DNA of 64,000 nucleotides from an uncultured Candidatus Saccharibacteria bacterium (GCA_964651115.1 CAZYXJ010000001.1:286085-350084); one strand, 5' to 3'; positions 3,627-59,119 are shown, numbered from the stretch's first letter. A program made the numbers and translations. The notes: a model not told the origin generated them from the sequence alone.

Positions 3627-4190
3627 TCAAATAAGTTCAAACTCTTCAAAGACGGTCCGGTAATCGGCAATGGTCTGTCGCGCTAAGCGATCCGTCAGCA
3701 CAAAGCCTGGTTCGTGAGCGATTTGGTTGCGGACTTTATGAGCCGACCAGGCCTGGTCAAGCGAAGTAAAATCACTAGGCTCAACGGCCTTAAGTTTCTC
3801 CCCCAACGAGTCTCCGCGATACTGCATGGACTTGAGGAGCTCATCGAGCATCTTATCGGCCTCGATAATTGCCAACTGCCAATCGGAAGGATTTGTCGAC
3901 GCAATCAACTGCTCCACCTTCTGCCAAGATTTGTTCTCCCGCGGAGTAAGTGCGGCCACTGGCACTCGCGACAAATTACCCACATAACCACGGCGCGCCT
4001 CTCGGATAGTGCGCGTCCAATAAAAAATCCGCCACAAAAAAATAGGAGTAACGATCACCAAACCCCACCACAGCAACCAACCGATTAATTTGACCGTCGC
4101 CCAACCGCCAGCCGAAGTGAGCAAGTTATAAACTTGCAAGTATAAATATTCGAGATTAAGAAAAAGTGGTCCGCTATACATGATGCCCAC
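3627..4190 (-). CDS. membrane-anchored protein with HEPN-like Rx4HE motif
   Basis: N-terminal hydrophobic segments (LIGWLLWWGLVIVTPIFLW). The C-terminal region contains AHKVRNQIAHE, which fits R-N-x3-H-E of HEPN/HepT-type RNase domains. Confidence 0.4.
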   Translation of the reverse strand: MGIMYSGPLFLNLEYLYLQVYNLLTSAGGWATVKLIGWLLWWGLVIVTPIFLWRIFYWTRTIREARRGYVGNLSRVPVAALTPRENKSWQKVEQLIASTNPSDWQLAIIEADKMLDELLKSMQYRGDSLGEKLKAVEPSDFTSLDQAWSAHKVRNQIAHEPGFVLTDRLARQTIADYRTVFEEFELI

Positions 4191-5574
4191 TTTCTATTGT
4201 AGCACCCAAGGCAAAAAGTGTGTTCTCGGCAAAGTGAGGTGCCAGTAATTGCATGCCGATGGGCAGATTTTTGGCGTCACGGCCAACCGGCACCGAGAGC
4301 GCCGGCAAACCCGTTAGGTTAGCGGAGACCGTAAAAATGTCTTCCAAATACATCTGGAGTGGATCGCCAGTTTTCTCACCAATCTTAAACGCCGTACTGG
4401 GAGTAGTAGGCAACAAGATCGCCTGGACACGGCCAAAGGCGTTAGCAAAATCCTGCTCCAAAAGCGAACGGACCGCGACCGCTCGACGATAGTAAGCGTC
4501 ATAGTAACCGGCCGACAAAACATAGGTCCCTAAAATAATGCGTCGCTTCACCTCACGACCAAAGCCCGCGCCGCGAGTCCGTAAATAATCTCCCAACAAA
4601 TTATCTCCCGGCACCGAGCGACCATAACGCAAGCCATCAAAGCGCGCCAAGTTGGTCGAACTCTCTGCCGGCATAATAATGTAATAACAAGCCAAAGAAT
4701 ATTTAATGTTGGGCAATTCAATCTCTACAATTTCGTGACCGGCCGCGCGCAGGGTGGCAATTGACTGATCCAGCGCGGTCAAAATTTCTGGCGCCACACC
4801 CGACTGCAAAAAGTGTCGTGGTACGCCAATCTTTAGCGGACCAGTGGGAGCTGGCTGAACCGGCGTTGCCACCGAAGTCGCATCCAGCGGGTCAACGCCC
4901 CGGATCGTCTCAAACAATAATTTGGCGTCGGCCACCGTCTCGGCAAAGGGACCAATCTGATCGAGTGAGGAGGCCATCGCCATCAAGCCCGAACGCGAGA
5001 CCGTGCCATACGTCGGTTTAAGACCCACCACGCCACAAAAGGCGGCGGGCTGACGGATCGAGCCACCCGTGTCGGAGCCCAGCGCCGCGGCGGCCAACTT
5101 CGCCGCTACGGCCGCCGCCGAACCACCCGAGGAGCCGCCGGCCACTCGAGACAAATCTTCTGGATTGCGCGTGGGGCCAAAGGCCGAATTTTCGGTCGAA
5201 CCGCCCATCGCGAATTCGTCCATATTCGTCCGGCCCACAAACACCGCGCCAGCGGCTCGGAGTTTGGCGATCACCGTGGCGTCATAACTGGCCACATAAT
5301 TTTCTAAAATTTTTGACGCCGAAGAAGCCACTCGCCCCTTGATTAAAATATTGTCTTTGACCGCGAGCGGCACGCCGGCGAGCGGTCCAAGCTCCTCCCC
5401 CCTGGCTCGACGCTCGTCGATCGCCGCGGCTTGTTCGCGAGCGTCCTTAAAAATTTCTAAATAAGCATTGAGCTCGGGATTTTTTTCTTGAGCGCGTTTT
5501 AAATACTCCTCAACCACTTGGGTAGCCGTCCGTTCGCCCGTTTTTACTGCGCGAGCAATCTCCGCTAAACTCAT
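4174..5574 (-). CDS. gatA: Asp-tRNA(Asn)/Glu-tRNA(Gln) amidotransferase subunit A
   Basis: Amidase signature GGSSGGSAAAVAA. Length 466 aa. Typical GatA N-terminus. Confidence 0.95.
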   Translation of the reverse strand: MSLAEIARAVKTGERTATQVVEEYLKRAQEKNPELNAYLEIFKDAREQAAAIDERRARGEELGPLAGVPLAVKDNILIKGRVASSASKILENYVASYDATVIAKLRAAGAVFVGRTNMDEFAMGGSTENSAFGPTRNPEDLSRVAGGSSGGSAAAVAAKLAAAALGSDTGGSIRQPAAFCGVVGLKPTYGTVSRSGLMAMASSLDQIGPFAETVADAKLLFETIRGVDPLDATSVATPVQPAPTGPLKIGVPRHFLQSGVAPEILTALDQSIATLRAAGHEIVEIELPNIKYSLACYYIIMPAESSTNLARFDGLRYGRSVPGDNLLGDYLRTRGAGFGREVKRRIILGTYVLSAGYYDAYYRRAVAVRSLLEQDFANAFGRVQAILLPTTPSTAFKIGEKTGDPLQMYLEDIFTVSANLTGLPALSVPVGRDAKNLPIGMQLLAPHFAENTLFALGATIESGHHV

Positions 5575-5839: not shown

Positions 5840-8412
<2,573 letters not shown>

Positions 8413-8415
8413 AAA

Positions 8416-8994
8416 TTATTGAGGGTTACCGCCCGGACCCTGACGCAATAGCTCCAGCGGCATAATTAAATTTTTAGAGGTGACGCCGTTAAACCACTGG
8501 ACCTCCACCCGCGCCACCAAGCGATCATCGGCCGTGTTGGGGGTATCATTGTCCTCGACCACCAGCGTCGCTCGACGAAGAAAGCGCGGGCCAACAATAT
8601 CGTTCTGAGTAGTCACGGGCACATACCGGCCGGCTCCGGGACTAAAGCCCAAAACGCAGGGCGAAACATTTCGCGCCGTAATCGGCCCCTGGCAACCCGA
8701 CTGTAATTGCGGAGTTGCGGCATCGATCCAAAAAGTTCCGGTTAGGCCCGCAAACACATCGGCCTCACCCAAACCCTGAGACAGCGCGGCAATCAAGGCG
8801 GTGTCGCGTAAATTGCGGATCACCTCCACACCCTCCTGAGCCAAAAAGGCGGCCACCAAATTATTGCGGGCGTACAATCCGTCACTAATCCCCCGCACCG
8901 CAATCGTCAGCGGCCCCAGCACGCCAATAACCAAAATCGTAATCGCCACCAGCGACTCAATCAAGGTAAACCCACGAGAATTAAAAGACTTCAT
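8416..8994 (-). CDS. prepilin-type pseudopilin / minor pilin
   Basis: Class III signal with a GFTLIESLVAI N-methylation motif. Confidence 0.8.
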   Translation of the reverse strand: MKSFNSRGFTLIESLVAITILVIGVLGPLTIAVRGISDGLYARNNLVAAFLAQEGVEVIRNLRDTALIAALSQGLGEADVFAGLTGTFWIDAATPQLQSGCQGPITARNVSPCVLGFSPGAGRYVPVTTQNDIVGPRFLRRATLVVEDNDTPNTADDRLVARVEVQWFNGVTSKNLIMPLELLRQGPGGNPQ

Positions 8995-8997
8995 AAG

Positions 8998-9576
8998 CTA
9001 ACGTTCGGAAATAGTGGTTTGTAATGCGAAACTAGTCTTGAGATCGCCTCGACCACCCTCCCCCAACAACACGACGGTGACGAGTGGTTGGGCACTAGGC
9101 AACCCGCCCAGCTCCTCGCTGTTTTTTACAAAAAACTTAACCGACTGCAAATCAATCAAATCTGGCGAAGTAATGGGTACAAACTCCGCGCCAGACTCAG
9201 AGACCGAGAGCACGCCTCGACCGTTGATCGTCTCACGCTTATACAAATAAGTGCGAGTGAGATCGCTGGATCGGAAGGCCAGAGATGATTCGCCCGTCGG
9301 GCAATTATGACCTTCGGTGGGAATAAACGAGGTCGAGAGCGCGGCCCCGGCCTCACAATAATAAAGTCCGCCATCTTGAAGATTGAACGAGATACTGTTA
9401 ACGGCAAAGTGGAGACTGTCCATCACCACCTTAATGGCTTGCGCCTTCTCATTGATCCGGTTGGCGGTAATCACGGCACCGCTAACAATCAAAGCCACGA
9501 TGGCGAAAATGGAAACGGCCACCATCAGCTCGATCAACGAAAAGCCGCGCGCTAAAAATTTAAGATTTCTGAACAT
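8998..9576 (-). CDS. prepilin-type pseudopilin / minor pilin
   Basis: RGFSLIELMVAVSIF prepilin cleavage and methylation motif. Confidence 0.8.
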   Translation of the reverse strand: MFRNLKFLARGFSLIELMVAVSIFAIVALIVSGAVITANRINEKAQAIKVVMDSLHFAVNSISFNLQDGGLYYCEAGAALSTSFIPTEGHNCPTGESSLAFRSSDLTRTYLYKRETINGRGVLSVSESGAEFVPITSPDLIDLQSVKFFVKNSEELGGLPSAQPLVTVVLLGEGGRGDLKTSFALQTTISER

Positions 9577-26319: not shown

Positions 26320-26393
26320 GCGCGTGTAGCTCAGTTGGTTAGAGCACCGAGCTTATACCTCGGCGGTCCTTGGTTCGACTCCAAGCACGCGCA
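26320..26393 (+). tRNA. tRNA-Ile, anticodon TAT (UAU)
   Basis: Acceptor gcgcgtg/cacgcgc. Anticodon stem ccgag/ctcgg with loop cttatac. T-arm cttgg-ttcgact-ccaag. Discriminator A. No CCA. Confidence 0.7.
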
Positions 26394-26404
26394 CTACTTG
26401 GCTT

Positions 26405-49323: not shown

Positions 49324-49665
49324 TTATTTCTTAGCTTCGGGGGTAGCGCTCGCGGCCTTAGCAGCAGCAATCTCGCTCTCGCGCTTCTTCTGCTCTAACT
49401 CCTTTTGCATCTTACCACCATGCTTAATAAACTTACGCGTCAGAGAAAACTCACCCAACTTGTGGCCGACCATATCTTCGGTCACCAAAACCTCCACGTG
49501 GTCACGACCATTGTGGACGCCGAACTTGAAGCCGACCATTTCTGGGCTGATCGAGGAGCGACGAGCCCAAGTTTTGATCACATTAGACTCGCCCGGCTTC
49601 TTACCGGCGATTTTCTTCAATAATTTGGGGTCCACATAGGGCCCCTTGGCGAGCGATCGTGACAT
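49324..49665 (-). CDS. rpsS: 30S ribosomal protein S19 with Lys/Glu-rich C-terminal extension
   Basis: S19 core [11 protein letters not shown]... plus a charged tail of about 20 aa. Confidence 0.9.
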
Positions 49666-49714
49666 AGATAAAGGAAAACACTGTCATCCACCATGGCGGA
49701 CTAGACAGTGTTCC

Positions 49715-49742
49715 ATATTAACAGAACTCTTTTCGATGTCAA
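49715..49742 (-). promoter_or_regulatory. candidate sigma70-like promoter driving rpsS and the downstream operon
   Basis: On the minus strand, TTGACA then a 16-nt spacer then TAATAT, directly upstream of rpsS. It is followed by a perfect 9-bp inverted repeat (49677..49712) and a T-rich tract. Confidence 0.45.
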
Positions 49743-49761
49743 CTAAGCCCTGTTTTTGGTC

Positions 49762-52173
49762 CTAACGAAAGAGACTGCGCAGTGACTCGGCGACGCCCGA
49801 TAGCTGCTTCCAGGCTCCCGAACTAGTTGGGCGAGCCACCGTAACTGGGCCATCCGAGAAGTCGATCGAACCGGAGGTGCACTGGCCGCCACCCGGGGTC
49901 GTTAGGTCACACACAGCGGCCAAATAGAAGGTGCCGGTAGCTTGACCCTCAGGAACAGTCCAAGTAGCCACACCAGTATTGGGGTGCTCGGGGATCAGCC
50001 AAGCCACTGGAGCGGTCTTGTTTTCGTTATAGAGGGCGATCGAAACGGAACTATTGGCCGGGAAATTGGCGCTCGTCCACTTAATCTCATAAGTCTGACC
50101 AATGGTAAAGGTTTGGGAGGCACGTGGCGAAGTGAGGCTAATGGTTGGTTCGGTCGAAGCGGGGCACTGGGGCAACGTCACACTCGCCACGGGACTAGTA
50201 CCATAAGCGGCCGAACTAACTGAATACTCAATCGTCTTACCGCCCCAGTTGGAATACTGACGAGTGGCGGTATAATTTTTACCAGCCGTCTGGATCCGCT
50301 CGCCGCCCGTAAAGTCAAAATAGCCCGTTGAGCCGCCAATCACCTTCTCTTGAAGGCGATACTCACCAGAAACGGCTGGTTCCCATTTAATCGCCACATT
50401 CTGGTAGCGACTACCGCTCTGATCCACGCACGAGGTCGTGATTTTAGGAGCCGGAACGCCAGCTACTGGCGCCGGGGCGCTACCCACCGTCACTGTAATC
50501 TGGTCAACATCTGTCCCCCCGACTCCGACGCAACTAACCTCAAAAACCTTAGTTCCGCTGCGACTGTAAGAATAGGATCTCTCACCGGAAACGCCAACCG
50601 AACTATCGTTTTCCGGATCGCTCAAAGTACAACTCGTCGCATTAGTGCTCGTCCAGCCGATGGTAAATTTAGTGTTTTGGGCCACAACCTGGTTCTGCGG
50701 ACTGGCATTGGCCGTGACGTTCACCGTCGGAGCCGCCGCTGGATTTACAATCTTGATCGGCTTATCGGAAAAGTCCCAGCGATCACCGGGACAGGTTCCG
50801 GCCACATTTACGAGGTCACAGAACACCCCTACATAGTACTCGCCCGTGGGCTGACCAGCCGGAATTGTCCACCAATAAGCGCCAGTGTTGGCTAATTCTG
50901 GCTTGATGTAAAGATTCTCACCAGAAGTGGTGTTGGTCTTCTTGAGCGTGAGGGTAATTGAGCCGTTGGCGGGAATGTTCTCCGCCGCCCACTTAATTAC
51001 ATAAGTCTTGCCGATTTCCAAGGTTTCGCCATTGTTGGGCCAGAGAATGGTCTCTTTGGAAAGAGAATCGCTCGCTGAGCCCCTCACTTTAACTTTAACC
51101 TTATTGCTAATACCTTGGGTAAACACCATATATACACTATAAGTTTTCCCTGGAATCAGGTCAGCAGGAGCAATGGCGCGAAGCAGAGTACTCCCCCATT
51201 GCGTTACCACTGCCCGGTACTGACCATCATTTTCGAAATAAACGATGGGATCTTTTGTCGGTCCAGTGCCCAACAAATTCAAGCCCTCAATAGCAAACTC
51301 AGCACCAGCATCAACAACAAAGTCATCATTGGCCTTAGAGCTAATCCTGGTTATTGCCGTAAGAGCCGTCGCGCAGGCGGGCGTCTTGAAGCTCTTAGCG
51401 CGAGAAAATTGCCCACCGGTAGAAACACGGACTAGGTAAGTGGTTTCCGGCTCAAGAGCCAAGGTGCCAATCTTATCCCAACGGGTAAAGCCTCGGAAAT
51501 CAATCGAGTTCTCTTCAGCCGAACGATTCCAGGTCTTAGTATTGTTGGCAAACGAGTCAGAACCAGGGCGAGAAATATCAACCCAGAAATATCCGTCCCC
51601 GGAAGCCCGACCACTCCAAGAAATTGAGCCGTCCAACCCCTCGTCAGTACAAGCGACGGAGACACTCGGAGTAGTGGGAACGTTAACCCGCTCGTCCACA
51701 ATCTTAAAGGTGCCATTGCTCCAATCATAGGAGTTAGCCGAACAGCGTTCGTCTACGCCCTTTTTGTCGCAAAAAATACCCAAGGTGTAAGTCCCCGGTT
51801 CAATATCTTCACTAATCGTCCAATCCCAGTTGCCAGTATTGTCTAATTCGGTTTTCACATCACTAATCTCCCCGCGGGCATCCTTAAGTGTTAGCGTCAC
51901 CACGGCGCCAGCGGGGAAATTTACGCCACTCCACACCACCGGGTAAGTTCCTTTAGTCACCAAAACTTCGCCTCCATTGGGATAGAGGAGTTGAACGCTA
52001 GGACCAGCCGCTGGCTGACTCAAGATCAGCGCGAGTTGCTCCTGGAGCTTCACAATCATCGCCTGCAGTTGAGCAATGAGAGCACTGTCGTTATTTGTCT
52101 GGGCCTGTACCAATCCCGCCCCACCCAAAACCAGAACTGCGAGCACGATCATCGCCGTCAAAAATTTCTTCAT
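49762..52173 (-). CDS. large secreted surface protein with three Cys-pair repeats of about 100 aa
   Basis: Signal peptide, a Q-rich helix, then three copies of the pattern P-NGGE-...-GxTYxIxW-...-NTG-xWxWTIP-...-GxYxLG-FCD-...-C-...-DFSD-IV. Confidence 0.7.
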   Translation of the reverse strand: MKKFLTAMIVLAVLVLGGAGLVQAQTNNDSALIAQLQAMIVKLQEQLALILSQPAAGPSVQLLYPNGGEVLVTKGTYPVVWSGVNFPAGAVVTLTLKDARGEISDVKTELDNTGNWDWTISEDIEPGTYTLGIFCDKKGVDERCSANSYDWSNGTFKIVDERVNVPTTPSVSVACTDEGLDGSISWSGRASGDGYFWVDISRPGSDSFANNTKTWNRSAEENSIDFRGFTRWDKIGTLALEPETTYLVRVSTGGQFSRAKSFKTPACATALTAITRISSKANDDFVVDAGAEFAIEGLNLLGTGPTKDPIVYFENDGQYRAVVTQWGSTLLRAIAPADLIPGKTYSVYMVFTQGISNKVKVKVRGSASDSLSKETILWPNNGETLEIGKTYVIKWAAENIPANGSITLTLKKTNTTSGENLYIKPELANTGAYWWTIPAGQPTGEYYVGVFCDLVNVAGTCPGDRWDFSDKPIKIVNPAAAPTVNVTANASPQNQVVAQNTKFTIGWTSTNATSCTLSDPENDSSVGVSGERSYSYSRSGTKVFEVSCVGVGGTDVDQITVTVGSAPAPVAGVPAPKITTSCVDQSGSRYQNVAIKWEPAVSGEYRLQEKVIGGSTGYFDFTGGERIQTAGKNYTATRQYSNWGGKTIEYSVSSAAYGTSPVASVTLPQCPASTEPTISLTSPRASQTFTIGQTYEIKWTSANFPANSSVSIALYNENKTAPVAWLIPEHPNTGVATWTVPEGQATGTFYLAAVCDLTTPGGGQCTSGSIDFSDGPVTVARPTSSGAWKQLSGVAESLRSLFR

Positions 52174-52252
52174 AAATAAAATTAAAGCTAAAAAACTTAC
52201 GCTCTTCTTAAGCTCTAGTATAGCGCTATTTTATCTGCTACGCTAAATCGGC

Positions 52253-53056
52253 TTGTCCACAATCATGCCCTCACCGAAAAAAATTTGGCTGATTTTACTG
52301 GGCCTAGTTGGCCTCTACCTTGCCGCCTCGGCCTTGGTCTTTTTTGGTGTTAAGTACGGCTGGACCAACACGGCCGGCCTGGCTGATCCAGGCCGGCCGA
52401 CGGCGGCGGCCAACCCCGTTTGGGCCAACAACGAAGAGTGGTCAACCCTGGCCGCCGCGCTAATTAAAGATCGCTCAGTCATTGAGGCGGCCGCCGCCCA
52501 AGTCAATCTGCGTCCCCGCCTGCTAGTGGCCCTCATCGTTCCCGAACAGCTCCGCCTCTTCCACACCGAGCGAGCGGTTTTTAAACAAATCTTCGCGCCG
52601 CTAAAAATTCTCGGCAACCAGAGCCAGTTCTCCTGGGGCGTGGCCGGCTTTAAGCAAGCCACGGCCGAGCAAGTTGAGGTCCACCTCACCAATCAACAAT
52701 CCCCCTTCTATTTGGGGCCGGAATTTGAAAATTTTCTAACCTTTACCACCACCAACCCTGATCAAGAACGCTTTGAACGGCTCGTTAACGAGCGTAATCA
52801 CTTCTACTCCTATCTCTACGCGGGATTATTTACCCGTCAGATTATGGCTCAGTGGGAACGAGCGGGCTGGCCCATCAGCGATCGACCAGAAATCTTAGGC
52901 ACGCTGTTTAACATCGGTTTTGATAATTCTCACCCCAAAGCCAACCCCGTCATGGGTGGGGCGGCGATTGAGATTGCCGGCACGACCTACTCCTTTGGCC
53001 GGTTAACTTACGAATTTTACTACTCCGAACTCCTGCAAGAAATTTTTCCGCGCTAA
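52253..53056 (+). CDS. hypothetical N-terminally membrane-anchored protein (267 aa)
   Basis: TM helix IWLILLGLVGLYLAASALVFF. No recognised motif. It lies inside the insertion on the opposite strand. Confidence 0.5.
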   Translation: MSTIMPSPKKIWLILLGLVGLYLAASALVFFGVKYGWTNTAGLADPGRPTAAANPVWANNEEWSTLAAALIKDRSVIEAAAAQVNLRPRLLVALIVPEQLRLFHTERAVFKQIFAPLKILGNQSQFSWGVAGFKQATAEQVEVHLTNQQSPFYLGPEFENFLTFTTTNPDQERFERLVNERNHFYSYLYAGLFTRQIMAQWERAGWPISDRPEILGTLFNIGFDNSHPKANPVMGGAAIEIAGTTYSFGRLTYEFYYSELLQEIFPR

Positions 53057-53673
53057 CTCTGAGGGCAGATTGACTTTTGCCCCAATTGCGACCGAGCCAA
53101 CAGAGCATCACCAAGATTTAATTGACCATTAGCCGTGCCATCATACTTGGCGTTACTGCCTGCGGGGACCAAAGCAATCTTACCTTTAATGGCTAGCGCG
53201 TCGGTCATATCGACGGCCCCGTCACTATTTACGTCGCCCAAGAGATTACGAAAATAAACGTTGCGATCAGTCCCAGAAGCAGTCCCACTAATCTTGCCCG
53301 ATAACGTCACCTCATAACAACCGCCATTAGGCAAAGCACCGAGCAACAGATCCAAGCTGAGGCCATCTGGCGCCAGGGAGACCCCTACCGGCGAACTGGT
53401 CGTGCCTGTTAAGACGTGCCGGACCACAATCGGACTGCCCGTTAACTCAACCACGTCATTAAAAACTGCCCTTAACTTGGTCACTCCCCCCAACCGTGGC
53501 TCGATGGTAATCGCAGTCGTCGTCCCCGGAGCCGCCGACTTATTAAGCGTCAGCGACTGCTCACCCGCCGCACCCTGAGTCTTCACCGACGTCCAGGTTA
53601 CCGAAGTCGCCTCCCCAAAAGCCACATTCGCCCAAAGCAACAAACTTAACACCGCCAAATACTTCATAAGCAA
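53053..53673 (-). CDS. secreted protein with C-terminal dockerin-like repeats
   Basis: Signal peptide. C-terminal GDVNSDGAVDMTDALAIKGKI and DGTANGQLNLGDALLARSQL resemble the duplicated calcium-binding dockerin segment. Confidence 0.55.
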   Translation of the reverse strand: MLMKYLAVLSLLLWANVAFGEATSVTWTSVKTQGAAGEQSLTLNKSAAPGTTTAITIEPRLGGVTKLRAVFNDVVELTGSPIVVRHVLTGTTSSPVGVSLAPDGLSLDLLLGALPNGGCYEVTLSGKISGTASGTDRNVYFRNLLGDVNSDGAVDMTDALAIKGKIALVPAGSNAKYDGTANGQLNLGDALLARSQLGQKSICPQS

Positions 53674-53762
53674 AAACTAATTATTAAAGCGAACACTTCC
53701 ATAGTAGCACAAACAACCCCCGCCACTGGCGGGGGTTGTTGATAACCGAACTGAACCTAGAG

Positions 53763-54380
53763 TTAGCGAGTCGTGACTGGCTTCTCTGAGCAAGAAGCGC
53801 TGTGGCCCATGTTAAAGCGGGCAAACAGAGCGTCACCCAAATTTACTTCGCCAGTGCGATTAACGTCATAGATAGCCAAGTCCGTCGTGGTACCGATAAC
53901 GTTCTTCAGCTTAAGAACGTCAGCCCCAGAAACTAGGCCATCACCCGTAACGTCACCAGCCAAAACCTTAACGTAAACCGCCTTGTCGCCCGTCTCGGCC
54001 AAGCCATCAAAGCGCTTATTAACGTCAATTTTGTAACAAGCACCGTCAGGCAAGTTGGCATACTCAAGCTCCAAGCGCTTACCGTCGTCGCTTAAGAAGG
54101 TCGAAGTTGGACGATGAAGGATCCCGGTACTCAAGCTACGAGCATGAGTATAAACTGGGCGCTTTTGGACTGGTAAGTCAAAGTTGATCACCACCTTCTG
54201 CAAACCACCCTGCCGGGTCTCCGTCGCAGTCGCCAGCGGGCTAAGAGCCAATGATTGCTCGCCTACCACCGCGTGACTGCGGACGCTCTCCCAGCTAACT
54301 ACCGTTGCGCCAGTTGAAGCGTAGGCCAGCGTTAGGCCAAAGGCCAAAGCTGCCCCCGCGCCAATAAAGATTTTGTTCAT
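53763..54380 (-). CDS. secreted protein with C-terminal dockerin-like repeats (paralogue of 53053..53673)
   Basis: Signal peptide. C-terminal GDVTGDGLVSGADVLKLKNVI and DVNRTGEVNLGDALFARFNM. The N-terminal domain aligns with that of its neighbour. Confidence 0.55.
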   Translation of the reverse strand: MNKIFIGAGAALAFGLTLAYASTGATVVSWESVRSHAVVGEQSLALSPLATATETRQGGLQKVVINFDLPVQKRPVYTHARSLSTGILHRPTSTFLSDDGKRLELEYANLPDGACYKIDVNKRFDGLAETGDKAVYVKVLAGDVTGDGLVSGADVLKLKNVIGTTTDLAIYDVNRTGEVNLGDALFARFNMGHSASCSEKPVTTR

Positions 54381-54463
54381 GAACCGTAAAAGTTAGTCTA
54401 ATCAATAAAACCACGAAAACTCTTCCATCCTACGTAAAAAGACGGAAAAGTCAACCCCGAGTA

Positions 54464-55315
54464 TTAGCGACGACGATCAATCTTCTTGCGTCGACTAAGC
54501 ACCGCGCCGCGAGAATATTTCTTACGTCGGCGAGTCTTAACGCCGAAAGCGAGCTTGCCAGTTGGCGTCTTAGGGCCGCGGCGCAAACCAATGGGCTGGC
54601 GACCCTCACCACCACCGTGAGGATGGTCTACCGGGTTCATCGCGCTACCACGAACCGTGGGGCGCACGCCCAACCAACGCGAACGACCGGCCTTACCACG
54701 ACTGACCAACTTGTGTTCATCGTTAGAAACGGCGCCAACCGTGGCCCAAGACTTTTCGTTAATCTTGCGCACCTCGGTGGAAGGCATCTTAACCGTGCTG
54801 TAACCGGCGTCATTGCCCAAAATCTGAGCGAAACTGCCCGCCGAGCGCACCAGTCGAGCCCCGCCAGCTGGTTGAACTTCGATATTGTAAATAAAAGTAC
54901 CTACCGGGATCTTGTAAAGAGGCAGGCGATTACCGGGTTTAGCATCAGCTTCAACCGAAGCAACAAACTGGTCCCCGACCTTAACCCCACCAGGCAACAA
55001 GACATAACGGCGAGTACCGTCAGCATAAACAACCAAACCAATAAAACCGGAACGGTTAGGATCGTACTCGATCGTCTCCACGCGAGCGGGAATATTTTTC
55101 TTGTCGTAAGAAAATTCGATTTCGCGATAGAGGCGCTTGTGGCCACCACCTTTATGACGAGTAGTGATCCGGCCATCAGCGTTGCGACCAAAGGCGCGCT
55201 TGCGACCATAAGTCAAAGACTTATGTGGCTCCGAGGCCGACAAGGTCTTGCGATAATCAATCGAAATCAGCTCGCGTCGACCGGGACTAGTAGGTTTGTA
55301 TTTTTTCGTGGCCAT
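54464..55315 (-). CDS. rplB: 50S ribosomal protein L2
   Basis: 283 aa with ...HPHGGGEGR... the conserved L2 motif. Confidence 0.95.
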   Translation of the reverse strand: MATKKYKPTSPGRRELISIDYRKTLSASEPHKSLTYGRKRAFGRNADGRITTRHKGGGHKRLYREIEFSYDKKNIPARVETIEYDPNRSGFIGLVVYADGTRRYVLLPGGVKVGDQFVASVEADAKPGNRLPLYKIPVGTFIYNIEVQPAGGARLVRSAGSFAQILGNDAGYSTVKMPSTEVRKINEKSWATVGAVSNDEHKLVSRGKAGRSRWLGVRPTVRGSAMNPVDHPHGGGEGRQPIGLRRGPKTPTGKLAFGVKTRRRKKYSRGAVLSRRKKIDRRR

Positions 55316-58506: not shown

Positions 58507-58579
58507 AAAACTTTATATATTGCCTAGTAAATTTTTAATAATAAACGACGAAAGTTAGGCGCGCGTAATGCGTAGCACC

Positions 58580-58608
58580 ATCCTAGCAGAGACGAGAAAG
58601 ATGTCAAA
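58580..58608 (-). promoter_or_regulatory. candidate sigma70-like promoter for tuf
   Basis: On the minus strand, TTGACA then a 17-nt spacer then TAGGAT. It lies immediately after the cassette terminator. Confidence 0.35.
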
Positions 58609-58615
58609 TGGGCCG

Positions 58616-58645
58616 CGAAAAAGGCGTCCTCAATTGAGGACGCCT
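58616..58645 (-). terminator. rho-independent terminator of the small cassette gene
   Basis: Perfect 10-bp stem aggcgtcctc-aatt-gaggacgcct, then TTTTT on the minus strand. Confidence 0.5.
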
Positions 58646-58678
58646 GGGGCGTGACGCTGCCCCGATTACAGTCTTGAC

Positions 58679-58930
58679 TCACACCAGAAGCCAGTAGCCC
58701 GGCGCGAGCGCGAGGCGCTCGGAGCGGCCCGGATGGGCCGAGAGCGGCGGCGAAGCGCGCGCGGGCGCCTCCGTGGTGAGCGCGGGTCTCAGATGGATCG
58801 CCGGCGCCCACGTGGCGCTCGGAGACACGATTGCCGTTGAAGTATGCAACCCACTCCCTGCGGTCTCTGCCGGCGGCGGCAAGCACCACGGCAAAGCCAA
58901 ACAGAAGGCCACAACCAAGAACAGCCGCAT
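58679..58930 (-). CDS. small secreted Pro/Ala-rich protein (83 aa) in a high-GC insert
   Basis: ATG at 58930 preceded by CAGGAGGTGACC. Product MRLFLVVAFCLALPWCLPPPAETAGSG... has a signal peptide. Local GC is well above the neighbouring sequence. Confidence 0.4.
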   Translation of the reverse strand: MRLFLVVAFCLALPWCLPPPAETAGSGLHTSTAIVSPSATWAPAIHLRPALTTEAPARASPPLSAHPGRSERLALAPGYWLLV

Positions 58931-59119
58931 GGTCACCTCCTGAAAATAAAAGTGCAAACCCACCCTAGAACACTGGGAGAACTGTAAGGGAAGACCTACT
59001 TAGGATCACCTACCTTTCTTGGTTAGACAATTCATAGTACAGTCTCCCGAGCCCAACTCCTACAAGCTGAGCAATCTGGGAATTAGCGTAACGCAAACTG
59101 CGCTAGAGCGCAAGAGTCC

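Follow-up and report, generated by a model that had tools for sequence, protein, structure and literature searches.

Four non-ribosomal genes between rplB and rpsS in an uncultured bacterium, and the open ribosomal junction of its clade

In this study we analyse a stretch of 64,000 nucleotides (nt) from an uncultured Candidatus Saccharibacteria bacterium (GCA_964651115.1, CAZYXJ010000001.1:286085-350084), referred to as the window, in which the S10 ribosomal gene cluster is split between rplB and rpsS. The rplB gene (uL2; 54464-55315, minus strand), recognized by TIGR01171 with 366 bits and by the Pfam domains Ribosomal_L2_N and Ribosomal_L2_C, is the final gene of the upstream half of the cluster, and rpsS (uS19; 49324-49665, minus strand; TIGR01050, 118 bits) opens the downstream half. 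On the minus strand the upstream half runs rpsL-rpsG-fusA-tuf-rpsJ-rplC-rplD-rplW-rplB and the downstream half rpsS-rplV-rpsC...rplO-secY-adk-map-ndk, both in canonical order; the canonical S10 operon, uninterrupted from rpsJ to rpsQ, is thus broken in the window at rplB-rpsS. The gap measures 4798 nt (about 4.8 kb), and the listing of open reading frames (ORFs) together with Pfam and NCBIfam profiles shows four non-ribosomal ORFs inside it, P205, P206 and P803 on the minus strand and P267 on the plus strand. A preliminary description of this DNA had reported a block of four non-ribosomal genes, three on the operon strand and one membrane protein opposite, in a cluster otherwise in canonical order, and had regarded the insertion as stable; the ORF and profile annotation bears out the layout, and the presence of the same block in a sister species bears out the stability.

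The split is real and inherited. Logan contigs assembled per run from SRR14271365, SRR14271372 and SRR14271375 match the window at 100% identity over L23-L2-P205-P206 and also over P803-S19-L22-S3. The independent sister genome GCA_964444555.1 (L164) has the same four genes and, for about 20 kb, is colinear with the window, their DNA being 91-93% identical, with a repeat-module indel in the gene of the large protein (803 vs 620 residues) as the sole structural difference. No assembly join is found at 49.7 or 54.4 kb in the three per-run assemblies and L164.

The two genes nearest to rplB encode paralogues with an Ig-like domain and a dockerin. P205 (53763-54380, minus strand) is small and secreted; its signal peptide is followed by an Ig-like beta-sandwich, and a type I dockerin forms its C-terminus. 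P206 (53053-53673, minus strand; probable start ATG at 53667) likewise combines a signal peptide with Ig-like and dockerin domains. The two are 35% identical to each other, and the orthologue of P206 in L164 is 92.6% identical to it. With 29.6 bits for P205 and 27.1 bits for P206, both exceed the cut-off of 22.9 bits of the type I dockerin profile (Dockerin_1, PF00404), and what had been called dockerin-like are therefore true type I dockerins according to the Pfam check. The duplicated calcium-binding loop-helix (F-hand) segment reads GDVTGDGLVSGAD...H and YDVNRTGEVNLGD...H in P205, and GDVNSDGAVDMTD and YDGTANGQLNLGD in P206. In the AlphaFold2 model of P205, with a predicted local distance difference test (pLDDT) score of 90, the dockerin helices span residues 152-160, 168-171 and 181-189, and the Ig-like sandwich resembles CopC and S-layer domains. 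A word-indexed search for close homologues of P205 recovered P205 itself alone; the full HMMER search found relatives, and showed that hundreds of larger secreted proteins, a subtilase among them, have an Ig-like plus dockerin unit of the P205 type as their C-terminal module. A weak match to a third dockerin in the window (4174-5574) falls in a GatA amidase and is spurious.

The other two genes are divergently oriented. P267 (52253-53056, plus strand; probable ATG at 52265) runs antisense to the ribosomal genes. At its N-terminus it has a transmembrane helix, and then a lysozyme-like alpha-helical fold, as in lysozyme and lytic transglycosylases. No Pfam or NCBIfam profile matches it, neither SLT nor a related Pfam family, and no match is obtained among PDB sequences. 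DUF1402 is weakly matched by 22 of 43 members of the P267 family (best E-value 4e-7), and no mention of DUF1402 was found in the literature searched, the coverage of which is incomplete. E62 and E98 are invariant across the 43 sequences and one of them may be the catalytic residue of a putative muralytic enzyme. The family is kept across the clade described below at 47-60% identity, comparable to L2. P803 (49762-52173, minus strand) is large and secreted. Besides a signal peptide and a short coiled-coil-like segment, it contains three Kre9/KNH-type Ig domains at residues ~58-160, 375-480 and 676-785, which phmmer finds as three internal repeats, and other beta domains. Pfam matches it to Kre9_KNH (PF10342) in two stretches with 56.8 bits against a cut-off of 24.6, and also to Psg1; no match is found among PDB sequences. 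It is a mosaic of Ig-type domains. The orthologue in L164 (8046-9908) differs in length by about 183 residues through gain or loss of repeat modules, and the gene is evolving fast by domain shuffling. The ends of the two orthologues are 81-93% identical. All four products are secreted or membrane proteins of the cell envelope, in support of the preliminary description on this point.

To place the junction among relatives, 160 loci around L2 homologues were fetched from species-representative genomes and metagenomes, 151 of which hold both rplB and rpsS. The loci were grouped by L2 identity to the window at 57%. Among the 132 loci below 57%, which come from Firmicutes, Cyanobacteria, Proteobacteria, Actinobacteria and other candidate phyla radiation (CPR) groups, the median rplB-rpsS spacer is 16 nt and just one locus (L032, a Patescibacterium) exceeds 150 nt. 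At 57% identity or more, 15 of 19 loci have a spacer of at least 150 nt, with a range of 150-2260 nt. In a neighbour-joining tree of L2, every open locus falls in one clade, which comprises 27 open, 2 closed and 1 uninformative loci (27 of the 29 informative being open) and takes in sequences labelled Kaiser-, Zambryskii- and Nomurabacteria. In adjoining CPR lineages, such as Yanofsky- and Uhrbacteria, rplB|rpsS is closed, and in all of the ~130 loci outside the clade rplB and rpsS are adjacent. The sole apparent outlier outside the clade, L023, seems to be without S19 because its S19 is N-masked. Other junctions in the clade, namely S7|fusA, fusA|tuf, S10|L3 and L5|S14, are open as well, with L2|S19 the most consistently so. 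We found no description of the rplB|rpsS break in CPR/Patescibacteria in the searchable literature, whose coverage is incomplete.

What fills the slot varies. The cargo is MazE/MazF in L011, an AbrB-type antitoxin with ParE in L008, DUF5674 in L007, diacylglycerol kinase (DAGK) in L015, and in L032 a 1007-residue PKD/CARDB protein together with an IS200-like Y1 transposase-type gene. The remaining cargo in relatives consists of small hypotheticals, and in L009, L086 and L092 the slot is "empty", about 150-200 nt with punctuation signals only. L178, the nearest lineage examined beyond the species group of the window (L2 74% identical), has a single gene of 206 residues in the slot, which was considered as a homologue of P205 or P206 and has no similarity to either. 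Because the slot of L178 holds this one unrelated gene, the four-gene block belongs to the window lineage alone; the open junction, by contrast, extends across the clade. The preliminary description had ranked rplB-rpsS among the most conserved adjacencies of bacteria, and a view of the split as the singular breach of a near-universal adjacency is not sustained, with 27 of the 29 informative clade loci open. It had also stated that the finding would fail if relatives were commonly interrupted by unrelated housekeeping genes; the interruption is indeed common and the genes unrelated, though accessory rather than housekeeping. Its question of lineage specificity likewise receives a divided answer, the block being restricted to the lineage and the open junction not. 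The case in the window is therefore not unique: an operon break of a known kind is filled here in a way particular to the lineage. As a side observation, toxin-antitoxin genes (PemK/MazF, MazE, ParE) recur in slots of the ribosomal cluster, at 10895-11490 in L011, at 1910-2396 in L008, and at 1565-1954 in L175, in the last case between secY and adk.

The signals of transcription at the junction were identified as consensus-scan matches in the window and its relatives, and the counts come from this simple scan. A terminator-like GC hairpin with a T-run lies within 120 nt after rplB in 12 of 17 open loci (6% in shuffled sequence), and a promoter agreeing with TTGACx-16/17-TAnnAT in 9 or more of 12 positions lies within 150 nt of rpsS in 13 of 17 (19% in shuffled sequence). 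Between this promoter and the ATG of rpsS, a hairpin and then a U-run are seen in 11 of 17 loci (0.4% in shuffled sequence), mostly ending 9-19 nt before the start codon. Such a promoter-then-hairpin leader is present at L2|S19 in 11 of 16 loci; the remaining open junctions of those loci give 0/6, 0/8, 0/8 and 1/10, which shows that the leader is a specific feature of the rpsS junction. In the window, the promoter-like site of rpsS (49715-49742, minus strand) is TTGACA-16-TAATAT with an extended TG, scoring 10/12 in the scan and having equivalents in 12-13 of 16-17 relatives. It is followed by the leader hairpin (49673-49714, minus strand; -21.5 kcal/mol, z -4.6, a stability reached by 0 of 200 shuffles) and then by UUUUCCUUUAUCU and the start codon. 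The whole 96-nt spacer between P803 and rpsS is the same in L164 save for a 1-nt indel.

Signals are also seen within and at the other end of the block. After P205 there is a terminator-type hairpin (53712-53740, minus strand; inverted repeat I3), with a perfect GC-rich stem of 14 bp and then UUUGUG, at -26.8 kcal/mol (z -4.6; none of 200 shuffles folds as stably); L164 differs in the loop only. The spacer between rplB and P205 (54381-54463, minus strand) contains a promoter-like TTGACT-16-TAGGAT (54454-54427), overlapped by a hairpin of 13-14 bp with G-U pairs and a U-rich tail (-20.7 kcal/mol, z -1.8), so the signal is ambiguous and may be read as a promoter or as a weak terminator. This spacer has a mean column identity of 98% to L164 against ~91% in the surrounding DNA. 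Since the three spacers compared with L164 have 97-98% mean column identity against 91-93% for the whole region, the comparison suggests that they are under constraint. The divergent spacer between P267 and P803 (52174-52252, 79 nt) has a -10-like TATACT on the minus strand and presumably holds promoters in both directions; no motif in the spacer between P267 and the large gene is conserved across lineages, and the junction spacers have no match among Rfam families. At the other end of P267, the stop codons of the convergent P206 (minus) and P267 (plus) overlap by 4 nt (53053-53056), as they do in L164, which leaves no space for terminators, and owing to this overlap the transcripts of the two genes must overlap as antisense RNA.

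The pair of P267 and a large secreted protein is also found in other lineages. Nine contexts of P267 homologues were taken from the 120 best matches on long contigs. In 8 of the 9, the P267 gene lies within the str-S10-spc cluster, at three different junctions, where it is oriented opposite to the ribosomal genes and diverges from a gene for a large secreted protein of 550-1850 residues; the large gene is always directed toward the downstream ribosomal or elongation factor (EF) gene. The pair is located at rplB|rpsS in the window and L164, directly after rplB in L165 and L166, at fusA|tuf in L168, L170, L172 and L174 (in L174 together with dockerin proteins), and upstream of rpsN in L175; the P267 homologue of L177 has no ribosomal genes near it. 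Behind the pair in L165 and L166 come genes for a VirD4-like ATPase and for glycosyltransferases, and rplB has no rpsS within ~10 kb. The large proteins share domains between lineages in a mosaic fashion. The idea of a non-random tie to the translation super-operon gains some support from this conserved pair in other slots, which had gone unnoticed in the preliminary description.

Two observations are related to these slots. Beside the pair, the coupling ATPase of VirD4/TrwB type is encoded at 4630-6252 in L165 and at 3394-5094 in L166, 72% identical to each other, and a glycosyltransferase cluster is present too, which could point to a larger locus of envelope or secretion functions; a VirD4-like gene of this kind is absent from the window. 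In the window, the fusA|tuf spacer (58507-59119), which is the slot taken by the pair of P267 and large protein in other lineages, is 613 nt long, GC-rich, and just 76% identical to L164 against 91-93% elsewhere. It contains an ORF of 83 residues with a signal-peptide-like N-terminus and conservation confined to the last 25 residues, and upstream of tuf a perfect terminator hairpin and a TTGACA-17-TAGGAT promoter.

In its sequence signals the junction has the marks typical of an operon boundary, a dedicated leader of rpsS among them, and the promoter and hairpin suggest that S10 here forms two units, not a single transcription unit. The reading that we consider rather probable is that of an insulated slot at an operon boundary, housing a resident envelope module, in a Parcubacteria/Paceibacteria-type clade of Patescibacteria. 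In this large clade rplB|rpsS would have turned into an operon boundary, with the two halves as separate transcription units: the upstream unit would stop after rplB, usually at an intrinsic terminator, and the downstream unit, from rpsS to the spc genes, would start from its own near-consensus sigma70-type promoter, followed by the short GC hairpin, the U-run and the start codon. The DNA between both signals would be transcriptionally insulated from either half, and because of this insulation the slot would tolerate insertions and lineage-specific genes. In the window lineage and its sister the slot houses a resident four-gene cell-envelope module, presumably with its own promoters, while elsewhere the P267 and large-protein pair takes other open slots, at fusA|tuf, after rplB and upstream of rpsN. 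The hairpin before rpsS would block read-through from P803, and it could likewise give the rpsS mRNA a more stable 5' end; a gene for an RNase J-type beta-CASP enzyme lies in the window. As for the module, the lytic-transglycosylase-like enzyme could open the peptidoglycan locally, allowing the large surface protein and the dockerin-bearing proteins that accompany it to be displayed.

Two other explanations concern the origin of the block. In one, the split would be an assembly or binning chimera uniting two contigs at ~49.7 or ~54.4 kb, and contigs of several relatives (L005, L008, L012, L085 and L088) do stop at or near the junction. However, both junctions are reproduced at 100% identity by three independent per-run assemblies, and the second genome L164 is colinear through the entire block; since these contigs span both junctions, an artefact was rejected and its probability is negligible. 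In the other, the block would be a recently acquired genomic island or the insertion of a mobile element. This would agree with a junction that acts as an insertion hot spot, with the IS200/Y1-type transposase-like gene in the slot of L032, with the toxin-antitoxin cargo of other relatives, and with a slightly low tetranucleotide correlation between the block and the rest of the window (0.77, where other 4.8-kb windows give 0.81-0.94). Yet none of the marks of such elements is present: the block lacks integrase, transposase and tRNA genes, its flanks are free of repeats in either direct or inverted orientation, and its composition is native, with a G+C content of 0.53-0.54 and a G+C content at third codon positions (GC3) of 0.55-0.63, compared with 0.52 and 0.58-0.59 in the ribosomal genes. 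Searches of the block against phage, plasmid and viral collections, PHROG and PADLOC gave no match, and no relatives of P267 are found in viral contigs. Moreover, in the sister species the block has diverged equally to its flanks, and the P267 family is conserved in the clade to a similar degree as L2. A mobile or phage origin was therefore rejected as very improbable, and the block is resident, not foreign.

In a further explanation, the block would be a functional, co-transcribed part of the ribosomal super-operon, by which envelope or attachment proteins would be made in step with growth; selection would hold P267 and the gene of the large protein within ribosomal or EF operons. It agrees with the presence of the pair inside the cluster in 8 of 9 contexts at three junctions, with the large gene pointing toward the downstream ribosomal or EF gene, with the lack of a strong terminator both between rplB and P205 and between P803 and the rpsS promoter, and with a GC3 of the block equal to that of the ribosomal genes. 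We nevertheless regard it as unlikely. P267 runs antisense and converges on P206, P205 has a strong terminator behind it, and rpsS retains its clade-wide promoter and leader with or without such cargo, while the slot of relatives holds toxin-antitoxin pairs and a transposase-like gene; the P267 homologue of L177 is unlinked to ribosomal genes, ~30 clade loci lack P267 near L2, and the linkage may be mere inheritance, retained since the slots are stable. The proposal of the preliminary description that the block is possibly co-regulated within the operon is disfavoured by the rpsS promoter and leader, the terminator after P205 and the antisense P267. Several points weigh against the insulated slot with a resident module as well. 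The hairpin after rplB is weak and overlaps a promoter-like site, and for this reason P205 may be co-transcribed with rplB; there is no terminator between P803 and the rpsS promoter; and the hairpin with U-run should also terminate the transcripts of its own promoter unless the start site lies inside the stem. In addition, no cohesin Pfam match is obtained in P803 or P267, part of the other window proteins having been scanned too. The L2 tree is that of one protein by neighbour-joining, the nine contexts of P267 are non-random and biased to the best matches, the ~30 clade loci fetched by L2 have no P267 homologue within 8-10 kb, and the tetranucleotide correlation given above is slightly low. 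Finally, one may combine two ideas, namely that the rpsS leader is a new attenuator or insulator responding to a ribosomal protein, which creates a new operon start in the ancestral S10 operon, and that the pair is retained as its expression tracks growth, e.g. as a host-attachment or wall-breaching apparatus of an episymbiont; that both are true together seems to us a little more doubtful still than co-transcription.

The adjacency of rplB and rpsS underlies operon models, marker-gene binning and synteny-based phylogenomics, and a clade with an open, separately promoted junction alters the annotation of its ribosomal operons. The open slot may account for frequent contig breaks there: the contig of L005 stops 2 nt past the L2 match, those of L008, L012, L085 and L088 stop within the slot, and assemblies may break through cargo variation within populations. 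The slot would be a natural insulated landing site, and flags accessory genes, such as surface proteins and toxin-antitoxin systems, that differ between close uncultured lineages. The recurrent lysozyme-like enzyme with a giant surface protein in ribosomal clusters is a concrete candidate for an envelope or attachment module. Some features elsewhere in the window are also worth recording. The L30 gene is absent between rpsE and rplO, and a missing L30 is a known CPR trait. A tRNA-Ile with anticodon TAT (UAU) is predicted by ARAGORN at 26320-26394 and may be unusual, as AUA is read in most bacteria by a lysidine-modified CAU tRNA. Upstream of the gene for NAD-dependent DNA ligase there are three tandem genes of ~190 residues each (7855-9576), two of which have a prepilin N-terminal methylation motif and are type IV pilin-like. 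The uS19 of the window (49324-49665) has an Ala/Lys-rich C-terminal extension, in agreement with the Parcubacteria-specific uS19 extension described in PMC9297842.

We finally compare the locus with known systems. Like non-cellulosomal dockerin surface proteins, P205 and P206 are secreted and have the two calcium-binding loop-helix repeats at the C-terminus. Unlike in those, the block is without a detected cohesin, scaffoldin or carbohydrate-active domain, and the Ig-like plus dockerin unit is free-standing here while it is a C-terminal module of large proteins elsewhere. P267 has 6-15% sequence identity to Family 1 lytic transglycosylases and lysozyme-like glycosidases (Slt70, MltE, MltF, g-type lysozyme and the type VI secretion system effector Tse3), and differs from them by the lack of a Pfam SLT match and by its N-terminal membrane anchor, its activity being putative. 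In Escherichia coli, the S10 operon has an L4-controlled leader attenuator before rpsJ and is continuous through rplB-rpsS. Compared with that leader (for context, see PMC3616713), the one described here is alike in placing a hairpin and U-run upstream of the first cistron of a ribosomal-protein operon and downstream of a promoter, and unlike in that the hairpin stands before rpsS, has no sequence or Rfam similarity to it, and has a putative regulatory role only. The closest parallel to the split itself is the invasion and separation of operon clusters in Gammaproteobacteria and Bacilli (Brandis 2021, PMC8046335), where a few native genes were inserted and some descendants have become fully disconnected. 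By the definition given there, an invasion places genes that are not part of the cluster, over less than 10 kb, between two of its members, and in relatives the cluster is either intact or has come fully apart; this is what is found here, with an insert of 4.8 kb, closed sister clades, and no rpsS within ~10 kb of rplB in L165 and L166. In both cases a few non-ribosomal genes lie inside a conserved cluster, the cargo is seemingly native and not from long-distance transfer, and the two sides are fully disconnected in some relatives. The invasions of PMC8046335, however, are mostly between operons (rpoBC|str and str|S10), with one inside the rpoBC operon, whereas the break in the window is inside the S10 operon at rplB|rpsS, is found clade-wide, is apparently accompanied by its own promoter and leader, and holds cargo that varies by lineage.

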